Virus record (IMG/VR): IMGVR_UViG_2703718812_000010
DNA from: a virus
Taxonomy: Duplodnaviria > Heunggongvirae > Uroviricota > Caudoviricetes
Direction: 5' to 3' (one strand)
DNA: 43,350 bases
The notes beneath the pieces are model-generated. The model was not told where the DNA came from, made no database searches, and worked only from the letters and a program-made list of their open reading frames with translations. Made by a program: the position numbers and the translations under genes. Shown piece by piece: positions 35,780-37,696 of the stretch (positions are counted from its first letter, which is position 1; every line of letters begins with the position of its first letter).

Positions 35780-36690
35780 TGTTTCATGTTGATAATAATT
35801 CCGGCGTGGCGAATATGCCTGCGCTGGCACCGGCGCAGAGTAATACCACCACCTGGTTTACCGAAGGTGACGGACAAAAAGGTATCAGCTGGATTGGTCA
35901 GGACTGGCTGAATATTCTCCAGGCCGAACTGCTGAATATTCTGGCTGAAGCCAGTATTCAGCCGGATAAGGCGCAGTTAAACCAGCTTACGCTGTCCATT
36001 AAAGCCATTATCGCTGCGAATGCCTTTTCCCGGAAAAACAACCTGAAAGAAATTGCTGATGCCGGTGCGGAAGCCCAGCGTCTTGCCCGTGGTTATCTTG
36101 GTCTTGGGGCGCTTGCCACAAAAAACAGTCTTGGTCCCGGTGACGTTAATGCTCTGGCGAAGGATCAGAACCTTGCCGACCTGGAGAATGCGGGAACCGC
36201 CCGTAATAATCTGGATGTTTACAGCAAAAGCGAAGGTGATAACCGTTACCTGCGCAGGGAGCAGAACGGCGCAGACATTCCGGATAAAGGCGCTTTTATC
36301 GATAACGTCGGTTTACGGGAAACGGTAAATAAGGCTGCTGATGCCCTGCCATCGGGTGGAACCGCCGTGGCAGCAAACAGACTCGCCACCCCAAGAAATA
36401 TTAATGGCGTTCCTTTTGACGGAACGCAGGATATCAACATCACGTCAGGAATGACGCAGTCAACCGCAGATGGCCGGTATGTACAGAATGTTCAGCTTGG
36501 AGCACAGAGCTATCATTCACCCGGAGGCAATGAAATATCATGGAATTACAGCGCACCTTCCGGTTGTATGCTTTCCGGTATTAACGTGCAGGAAACCGGC
36601 TCCCGGTCTGCGGACAATATCGGTGGGGTCTATTATCGCCCGGTTCAGATTTATATTAATAATGCCTGGAGAACGGTAAGTTCAGTGTAA
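35779..36690 (+). CDS. tail fibre protein S (constant part plus currently joined variable C-terminus)
   Basis: 303 aa; the gene is crossed by a Gin recombination site at 36297-36322; the C-terminal region is homologous to a promoterless inverted segment at 37326-37682. Confidence 0.75.
   Translation: MFHVDNNSGVANMPALAPAQSNTTTWFTEGDGQKGISWIGQDWLNILQAELLNILAEASIQPDKAQLNQLTLSIKAIIAANAFSRKNNLKEIADAGAEAQRLARGYLGLGALATKNSLGPGDVNALAKDQNLADLENAGTARNNLDVYSKSEGDNRYLRREQNGADIPDKGAFIDNVGLRETVNKAADALPSGGTAVAANRLATPRNINGVPFDGTQDINITSGMTQSTADGRYVQNVQLGAQSYHSPGGNEISWNYSAPSGCMLSGINVQETGSRSADNIGGVYYRPVQIYINNAWRTVSSV
36297..36322 (+). repeat. gixL-like recombination site
   Basis: TTATCGATAACGTCGGTTTACGGGAA, a 26 bp match to the Gin/Hin crossover-site pattern (two 12 bp half-sites around a 2 bp core), in inverted orientation relative to 37671-37696. 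Confidence 0.6.
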
Positions 36691-36701
36691 ACCACAGAAA
36701 A

Positions 36702-36718
36702 GGGTGCTGAATGCACCC
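36702..36718. terminator. bidirectional hairpin between convergent S and U' genes
   Basis: GGGTGC-TGAAT-GCACCC; on the minus strand it is followed by TTTTCTG. Confidence 0.4.
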
Positions 36719-36724
36719 TCTGAA

Positions 36725-37246
36725 TTATTCCGGTTTTTCCGGCCAGGGAATCGCCTGGTAATGCCCCTCACTGGCAATATCATTAAAGTGCATTTCTTTA
36801 AGCTGTCGGATATACGCCATCCAGCGCGTCAGCTGTAATTTATTTTCATCGCTAATCATGTCCAGTTTTAATTCTGTTTTCCAGTCATCCACGGTTTCGT
36901 TGGCTTCCTGGAGCAGCGATGAGCGACGCTTTTCAGCAACCGTCTTCCAGTTTACCGGCACCTTTGATATCAGGCCATCAGAACACTGCCAGTTACCGTC
37001 AATATTCACACCTTCCGGCAGTTCGTCCACTTCAACAACAGTAAAACCTGCCGGATATAAAGCAGAGACATCTTCAGCAACAGAGCAGATAATACCCGTT
37101 ACAGGCGAAATACAGAGTTTGTATTTCTTTGTGAAAAGCGGGATAGATTCATAAAAATCCCTTCCGTCCTCACTCTGGAAATACTGAACATCCTCACCAT
37201 AGGGTTTGTGTTCCGGGTAATATCGTTTTACGTTAATAAGCTCCAT
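36725..37246 (-). CDS. tail fibre assembly protein (U'-like chaperone)
   Basis: Internal ATG (MELINVKRYY...) of ORF 36725..37357; C-terminus ...IPWPEKPE typical of tail fibre assembly proteins; lies inside the invertible segment. Start uncertain (37246, 37285 or 37357). Confidence 0.65.
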   Translation of the reverse strand: MELINVKRYYPEHKPYGEDVQYFQSEDGRDFYESIPLFTKKYKLCISPVTGIICSVAEDVSALYPAGFTVVEVDELPEGVNIDGNWQCSDGLISKVPVNWKTVAEKRRSSLLQEANETVDDWKTELKLDMISDENKLQLTRWMAYIRQLKEMHFNDIASEGHYQAIPWPEKPE

Positions 37247-37325
37247 TATTTCACCTTGTTTTTGTTGAAAAGACAAAATCATCATATATTTATTCAGATA
37301 ATCTGTTTTTTGAACTACTGCACTT

Positions 37326-37682
37326 TTATGCGCTGGAAGCTGTTTTCCACGAACCATCTATCAGAAACTGAACAGGTCGATAATATGCGGTTACCGTTGC
37401 ATTACCATCACCAGCGACATCAAGCCCTGTAAGTACGCATCCGTCAGGAACTTCAAAAATATTATATTGCATTCCAATCGTTGACCTTGAACCTCTTCGA
37501 ATGCTTTGAACATAACGTGAGTCAGCCACAGACTGCGTCATCCCCGATGTAATATTTATATCCTGCGTTCCGTCAAATGGGACACCATTAATATTTCTTG
37601 GAGTGGCGAGTTTATTCGCTGCAACAGCCGTTCCGTTCGATGGCAGGGCATTCGCGGCCCTGTTTACAGTATCCCGTAAACC
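37326..37682 (-). CDS. alternative tail fibre variable C-terminal segment (S'v), promoterless and start-less in this orientation
   Basis: The minus-strand frame opens right after a TGA inside gixR and reads GLRDTVNRAANALPSNGTAVAANKLATPRNINGVPFDGTQDINITSGMTQS..., which parallels S residues GLRETVNKAADALPSGGTAVAANRLATPRNINGVPFDGTQDINITSGMTQS... and then diverges. Confidence 0.65.
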   Translation of the reverse strand, partial: GLRDTVNRAANALPSNGTAVAANKLATPRNINGVPFDGTQDINITSGMTQSVADSRYVQSIRRGSRSTIGMQYNIFEVPDGCVLTGLDVAGDGNATVTAYYRPVQFLIDGSWKTASSA

Positions 37683-37696
37683 GAGGTTTCAGGGAT
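37671..37696 (-). repeat. gixR-like recombination site
   Basis: ATCCCGTAAACCGAGGTTTCAGGGAT; its reverse complement shares CGGTTTACGGGA with gixL; 55 bp upstream of the invertase gene. Confidence 0.6.

Follow-up and report, generated by a model that had tools for sequence, protein, structure and literature searches.

A Gin-type invertible tail-fibre segment with a single assembly gene in a Mu-like prophage and its relatives

How can a phage that alternates between two fibre tips manage with a single tail fibre assembly (Tfa) gene? The question is raised by IMG/VR virus record IMGVR_UViG_2703718812_000010, a stretch of 43,350 nucleotides of caudoviral DNA (the window), in which roughly positions 3784-42613 make up a Mu-like Escherichia coli prophage some 38.8 kb long. 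Beside a homologue of the Mu invertase Gin lies a 1.4 kb segment bounded by two inverted crossover sites. It holds Sv, the C-terminal part of the tail fibre gene S that is now expressed, a silent alternative C-terminus, S'v, and the only Tfa gene, U', on the strand opposite to S. A sequence-only reading of the window had observed that the expressed tip has no co-oriented chaperone and had offered three explanations: Sv folds without one, U' is expressed from its own promoter, or the segment is a reduced or degenerate version of the Mu type.

We lean, with modest confidence, towards a working Gin-type host-range switch with one shared chaperone, in which the U' cassette would be expressed both ways and would fold both tips. 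Gin would flip the 1.4 kb segment and so exchange the homologous Mu-type tips Sv and S'v on the constant part of S. U' would form a self-contained cassette within the segment: a 79-nt spacer that supplies promoter and leader, then the gene, then a terminator of its own. Its expression would thus depend neither on the orientation of the segment nor on the S transcript, and its product would fold both the Sv and the S'v tips.

Anatomy of the segment and its natural inversion

The S gene (35779-36690, + strand) appears in the list of open reading frames (ORFs) as a protein of 303 aa. Its constant part, Sc (residues 1-177; 35779-36309, +), ends at the crossover dinucleotide and is followed by Sv (36310-36690, +), delimited from the ORF list and the alignment to Mu S. 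The silent S'v (37326-37683, -) has no start codon of its own, and a TGA lies in its frame just outside the right crossover site. Residues 1-198 of S align to residues 1-191 of Mu S (5yvq_A, E 1e-48) and tip residues 228-302 to Mu S 434-503. S has therefore both the baseplate-proximal N-terminal domain and the homologous C-terminal tip of a Mu S-type fibre, while some 240 residues of the middle, or shaft, of Mu S have no counterpart in it. Sv and S'v are homologous from end to end, with 88% identity over the first 58 aa and 34-37% in the tips, and both end in the motif YYRPVQ...W.T.SS. Since the Mu S portion contained in the TfaMu-fibre complex 5YVQ aligns with both, the two tips belong to a family whose Mu member is Tfa-bound; U' aligns to the other component of that complex. 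In a near-identical RefSeq copy of the prophage, PGAP annotates two small genes here: a 67-aa 'tail fiber protein' at 37326-37529 (-), begun at an ATG inside the silent S'v, and, antisense to S'v, a hypothetical protein of 61 aa at 37552-37737 (+). Both look like annotation artefacts.

The left gix-like site, TTATCGATAACG-TC-GGTTTACGGGAA, occupies 36296-36321 (+; TC core at 36308-36309) and the right one, ATCCCGTAAACC-GA-GGTTTCAGGGAT, occupies 37671-37696 (+; GA core at 37683-37684). The right site lies exactly where the sequence-only reading had put it, while the left one had been placed 1 nt too far to the right (36297-36322). Both resemble Mu gix (TTATCCAAAACC-TC-GGTTTACAGGAA), with which their inner half-sites agree at 11 of 12 positions. 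An 18-nt core pattern has exactly two matches in the window, inverted to each other, against a chance expectation of 0.05. The locus thus presents the two inverted 26-bp sites with identical 2-bp cores (TC/GA) that define a serine-invertase system. The homology continues inwards as an inverted repeat of 182 nt, 79% complementary, between a left arm at 36304-36485 (+), which encodes the well conserved 58-aa stretch, and a right arm at 37507-37688 (-), identified by repeat comparison. It reaches about 165-175 bp inside the crossover points, in agreement with the inward homology of about 160 bp that had been reported.

The invertase itself (37751-38311, +; 186 aa) is a member of the Gin family according to its Pfam profiles (Resolvase, 1.4e-51; HTH_7, 1.7e-14) and to its alignment with Mu Gin, to which it is identical at 136 of 186 residues (72%). 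In Mu, a Fis-bound recombinational enhancer acts in cis from within the 5' part of gin. A Fis-like match, GTGCAGGATGTGAGC, at gin offset 71 is conserved between Mu and the window; a simple pattern gave no second site. Inversion in silico joins Sc (residues 1-177) to S'v in frame, because the core has the same codon phase in either cassette, and yields an S' protein of 295 aa in which the last ~120 residues of S have been exchanged. The gix-like sites, the Gin homologue and this in-frame exchange of tips bear out the earlier description of a Gin-type invertible tail-fibre segment.

The window and its in silico flipped version were searched against 5,426 complete Escherichia coli genomes. At a query coverage of at least 80%, the window orientation was found in 182 E. 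coli records and the flipped orientation in 23, of which 14 at an identity of at least 99%. IMG/VR contigs also hold both states (for example L024 and L042), and single genomes carry one copy in each state (NZ_CP024056.1, strain SMN197SH3; NZ_CP062782.1, strain Z869; NZ_CP074994.1/NZ_CP074995.1, strain 8479). Detection of both orientations had been proposed as the check on inversion, and public genomes supply it: inversion takes place in this prophage family, as shown for the family rather than for this particular strain. In strain 8479, one copy of the prophage region lies on a second replicon of 167 kb.

The invertible region is already known from Sp18 of E. coli O157:H7 Sakai, which by its published description belongs to the same prophage family; close copies occur in O157:H7 and other Shiga toxin-producing E. 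coli (STEC). Sp18 carries an invertible host-specificity region with genes distinct from those of Mu, was judged intact, and its DNA is packaged (PMC2669165). That paper (Asadulghani et al. 2009, PMC2669165) is silent on the number of assembly genes and on chaperone expression.

U' (37246-36725, -; 173 aa) is a clear member of the Tfa family. It matches the Pfam profile PF02413 (Caudo_TAP) with 65.9 bits (E 5e-18), well above the curated cut-off of 22.1, as well as PHROG 136 (E 2e-56), and it is homologous to a Tfa of solved structure, Mu U (5yvq_B, E 2e-14, covering TfaMu residues 23-158). Its start at MEL is conserved across the allelic types described below and is also the one annotated by PGAP. 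As had been claimed, it is the only assembly gene, with the single Caudo_TAP match among the ORFs of the window. With this sole Tfa on the minus strand, the expressed Sv indeed has no co-oriented chaperone, and no overlooked second co-oriented assembly gene, which would have spoken against the earlier description, was found in the segment. The stops of Sv and U' are separated by 34 bp, too short a gap for a remnant of a second assembly gene. A hairpin lies between these convergent stops (36699-36721, -); it would act as the terminator of the U' cassette, because its U-tract is present on the minus strand only. On the other side of U', an AT-rich spacer of 79 nt (37247-37325, -) extends from the S'v stop to the U' start and is the proposed promoter and leader of U'. 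It includes a Shine-Dalgarno sequence, AAGGTGA, directly before the ATG and a -10-like TATGAT at 37286-37281 (-), ending 34 nt before the start.

The segment therefore resembles the G segment of Mu with Gin (and the C segment of P1 with Cin) in its adjacent serine invertase and its 26-bp gix-type sites with a TC core. As in Mu, the C-terminus of S is exchanged in frame, and the S ends and U' are homologous to Mu S and U. However, the Mu/P1 arrangement of one Tfa gene per orientation, abutting its tip gene, is absent. The Mu sequence confirms the earlier statement that Mu has a U gene for each orientation: it carries both U and U', each 2 nt from its tip gene, whereas the window has one Caudo_TAP gene preceded by 79 nt. 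The segment is also shorter than that of Mu (1.4 kb versus 3 kb), and its inverted homology extends over 182 nt while that of Mu is limited to the crossover sites. Finally, each Mu tip has its own Tfa, while in the family of the window different tips go with a U whose N-terminal half is conserved.

One-chaperone segments carry a spacer before the assembly gene

With the invertase as query, 80 loci were collected, in which Tfa genes were marked by an iterated profile and inverted repeats located. The 13 non-redundant two-Tfa segments provide about two dozen tip/Tfa pairs, with gaps ranging from -76 to +14 nt and mostly from -4 to +8 nt. In contrast, the tip stop and the Tfa start are 51-120 nt apart in every true one-Tfa segment surveyed: 79 nt in the window's type (A), 120 nt in types B and D (99 nt to the first in-frame ATG), 51 nt in type C, 69 nt and 97 nt in the Citrobacter-type loci L002 and L176, and, among P2-like prophages, 95 nt in six loci (L112-L115, L157 and L167) and 72 nt in two (L155 and L144). 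The genes abut or overlap in L178 and L180, two non-invertible relatives that have a single tip and a single Tfa. All tips of any one-Tfa segment belong to one C-terminal family, while mixed-family segments have two chaperones. Four other loci (L121, L141, L149 and L162) were rejected as one-Tfa segments and counted among those with two chaperones, since each has a second small chaperone-like ORF. These ORFs of ~92 aa (6353-6637, -, in L121; 3532-3810, -, in L141; also in L149 and L162) were missed by the Tfa profile, sit after a different kind of tip ending in FSWRVY(Y)AP and may encode a distinct small fibre chaperone.

Mapping by tblastn over 77 related viral loci distinguishes four types, A to D, each with exactly one Tfa. 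Type A is that of the window. Type B differs from it in the S'v tip. Type C has other tips, and its U and Gin show 60% and 81% identity, respectively. Type D lacks S'v, the right site and gin, and its S is followed by a convergent, intact U of 173 aa. Between type A and the others, U identity is 60-63% and Gin identity 81-100%, and the tips differ. The two Citrobacter-type loci also have one Tfa, and in L002 the tip directly upstream of it is Sv-like (51% identity). The classical layout with two Tfa genes is found in L053, which is more distantly related. Although the tips differ, it is the N-terminal half of U that is better conserved across types (non-synonymous divergence, dN, of 0.11-0.17 versus 0.39-0.46). 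In TfaMu this half binds the fibre and is the fibre-specific part (PMC9608196), and Tfa N-domains have been described as variable (North et al. 2019, as summarised in PMC9608196).

The spacer is conserved as well. In its last 60 nt before the ATG, 4.8% of sites differ among B/D copies, versus 30-35% of the four-fold sites of U; judged from this comparison, the U' spacer is under constraint. One locus, L017 (2526-3175), combines a type A U (97% identity to the window) with a type B spacer and S'v tip. Since recombination joined the two parts at the U start codon or close to it, tip plus spacer on the one hand and the chaperone gene on the other may be exchanged as separate modules.

Type D is represented by L018-L022, L029 and L034 and by NZ_CP145714.1 (266161-266682), NZ_AP022815.1, NZ_CP011018.1 and NZ_CP010183.1. 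In four strains it is inserted in bcsA, flgK, xdhA and flgL, four different host genes, which points to separate transposition events. In strains CI5 and M3, all displayed tail and late-region genes are annotated as intact. The deletion stops ~20 nt into S'v and leaves the entire spacer in place. Phages fixed with S and Tfa on opposite strands have thus transposed repeatedly, all with an intact Tfa, which is difficult to reconcile with a Tfa dedicated to the lost S'v or with a defective orientation.

Eight P2-like prophages (L112-L115, L157, L167, L155 and L144) share with the window the presence of one Tfa in a Gin-type segment with tips of the same family. They belong to another phage family and differ in carrying the N-terminus of P2 gpH. 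They have two or three alternative tips and spacers of 72-95 nt, and both states are observed. Three of them (L112, L114 and L144) have three tips for one Tfa; with three tips in the segment, they would have more than two crossover sites in a small shufflon-like arrangement. No isolated phage matching the P2-like one-Tfa loci was found in the collection searched.

The 95-nt spacer contains a perfect dyad, TGTGTGATTACTCACACA (TGT-N12-ACA), centred 43.5 nt before TACGAT and 76 nt before the ATG. All eight P2-like one-Tfa loci have TGT-N12-ACA ahead of the Tfa gene, centred 76-80 nt from its ATG; none of 11 two-Tfa loci has it in that position. Measured from its centre, the L113 dyad is ~56 nt upstream of the predicted transcription start; the dyad of P2 late promoters is positioned near -55. 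On the same contigs, TGT-N12-ACA is also found before ORFs of 192 and 390 aa, which have the size and position of P2 genes V and FI. This sequence is the consensus of four Ogr-dependent P2 late promoters, and P2 G is normally co-transcribed with H in the VWJIHG operon (PMC3931495). Because a dyad with an Ogr-type consensus precedes a Tfa gene whose P2 counterpart is normally part of an operon, the single Tfa of the P2-like loci is predicted to have acquired its own late promoter. These loci thus show the features of an Ogr-dependent late promoter; the window itself stands outside that comparison, and its spacer has no recognisable activator site where the P2-like spacers carry TGT-N12-ACA. We propose, tentatively and with somewhat less assurance than for the window, that one-chaperone segments could be a general design that arose independently in Mu-like and P2-like phages, with a generalist Tfa forming its own late unit, of the Ogr type in P2-like phages, which would be expressed in either orientation of the segment and would serve two or three diverged tips of the same family.

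The promoter question and the rival explanations

In the C-dependent late promoters of Mu, a -10 element without a -35 element is preceded by an imperfect dyad whose centre lies at -43.5 (PMC2582627). The window encodes a Mor/C-family activator at 14015-14440. In the window, a 22-nt box, CTGAWATYCCGCAAARCCYGCC, is present at 14437-14458 and 22365-22386 (+), before the lysozyme and head protease genes. TAYGCT begins 33 nt after the ATYCCG core of this box, which resembles the C-box of Mu Plys, and the two copies are likely the C-dependent Plys and PI promoters of the prophage. The equivalent of PP was not found with the box derived from Plys and PI. By this model, built on two sites, no Mu C-dependent late promoter is seen in the U' spacer, which does not match any of the four annotated Mu late promoters either. 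Its TTAT-N4-ATAA was considered as a Pmom dyad (TTAT-N6-ATAA) and rejected, both the spacing and the distance to any -10 being wrong. Four Mu-like spacers that are unrelated to one another each have a -10-like hexamer ending 34-35 nt before the ATG (TATGAT in the window, TATTAT, AATAAT and TATAAT; at least 5 of 6 matches; product of the shuffle probabilities 5e-4).

Several observations weigh against a shared chaperone expressed from its own promoter. A sigma-70 consensus scan of 35700-38500 gave no site in the U' spacer (37247-37325). The CTGAWATYCCGCAAARCCYGCC box is absent from the segment and matches only Plys and PI in the window, a weak negative because the model was built on two sites and also misses PP. 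The position of the hexamer at 34-35 nt was spotted post hoc and, as a rule, held only loosely in L176, fetched and examined later, where the best hexamer lies at 40 nt. Among the P2-like loci, the dyad of L155 and L144 overlaps the last codons of H and could be a by-product of the coding sequence. Little weight was given to the low dN/dS of U in the invertase-less prophages (0.10-0.23): U has diverged far more than the flanking junction, which suggests imported alleles, and in type D the low values may stem from such import and not from selection acting since the deletion. As no U-tract follows the hairpin on the plus strand, late transcription of S probably continues into U' in the antisense direction, and this could hinder U' expression. 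Finally, the promoter in the window's spacer and the action of U' on Sv are both features that we infer.

Among the explanations offered by the sequence-only reading, expression of U' from its own promoter nevertheless has the most support, from the spacer found only in one-Tfa segments, the P2 dyad and type D, the promoter of the window itself remaining a predicted one. A first alternative is that Sv folds without a dedicated chaperone and that U' serves S'v only, by read-through from S' after inversion. It would account simply for the missing co-oriented Tfa and the 34 bp between the stops, for a spacer with neither consensus promoter nor C-box, and for the U' terminator, which would fit the end of an S'-U' operon. 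However, such an operon needs no 79-nt spacer, and real operon pairs abut; type D, found at four insertion sites, retains the spacer and an intact, oppositely oriented U despite the loss of S'v; an Sv-like tip adjoins the Tfa in L002; and Sv is homologous to the Tfa-bound tip of Mu. The data argue against folding of Sv without a chaperone, and we consider this alternative unlikely.

A second alternative is that the chaperone of Sv is supplied in trans by the Tfa genes of other prophages in the cell. STEC hosts are rich in Tfa-bearing prophages (the query finds as many as 8-9 matching places in a genome, and in 513 records the match is at only 60-80% identity), and Tfa families have a conserved C-terminal domain in common (PMC9608196). 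Yet in TfaMu specificity for the fibre lies in the N-terminal domain (PMC9608196), reliance on host prophages would make the host range unreliable, and the identical layout recurs in unrelated lineages and hosts. Trans supply also leaves both the spacer and the P2 dyad unexplained, and it appears improbable.

U' could also be read from an outside promoter in the interval between the right site and gin, leftwards through the untranslated S'v. The geometry permits this, since S'v-U' points away from the side of the right site. The sigma-70 scan, however, revealed no site between the right gix-like site and gin, the minus strand of 37697-37750 included, and type D has lost this interval and kept U. 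Long untranslated leaders are prone to premature termination, a risk that one of 360 nt would run here. We regard an outside promoter as very improbable.

Decay of a G-type segment, by deletion of an Sv-linked U and with one orientation yielding defective particles, is suggested by the two Tfa genes of Mu and of the related L053 and by the ~240 aa of the Mu shaft missing from the window S, but is scarcely credible given a clean 34-bp junction that holds a terminator and no gene remnant, a layout common to at least three diverged allelic types and to other lineages, the natural occurrence of both orientations with the chaperone-less one the commoner in genomes, the repeated transposition of type D phages fixed in that state, and an Sp18 judged intact and packaged (PMC2669165); the earlier suggestion of a reduced or degenerate segment is not supported.

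Prophage setting and implications

The tail-fibre region of the window is 99-100% identical to many STEC genomes, and records labelled 'inserted Bacteriophage Mu-like phage' match it at 94%. NZ_CP038328.1 carries an otherwise 99.4% identical copy that matches the window over 3784-39330 only. Upstream of S, the ORF list, Pfam and the RefSeq annotation identify the baseplate J/gp47 gene (34143-35228) and the gp48/YmfQ gene (35219-35779). An esterase gene follows gin. It lies between gin and com/mom, a place that is empty in Mu, and its product of 685 aa (38402-40459, +) combines a SASA sialate-O-acetylesterase-type domain with DUF6645 and is present in all relatives, with only 45-62% identity between types. 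Its C-terminal part is mosaic, the region 39331-40717 diverging from the NZ_CP038328 copy. This protein could be a receptor-modifying or lysogenic-conversion enzyme. Elsewhere in the prophage, the RefSeq copy has a 'tRNA-OTHER' at 21645-21724 (-), between the minor head protein and virion morphogenesis genes; ARAGORN detected no tRNA at these positions.

No prior description of the single-chaperone logic, its recurrence or the promoter-bearing spacer was found in the literature searched. If the proposed shared chaperone is correct, the coding cost of a host-range switch would be halved, or a third tip could be added at no chaperone cost, and a Tfa would be shown to accept a wide range of tips from one family. 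Cassettes composed of promoter, Tfa and terminator, together with compact (~120 aa) swappable tips, could help to retarget phages or tailocins. For STEC, the widespread Sp18-type prophage would then represent a complete two-state host-range system and not a crippled one.

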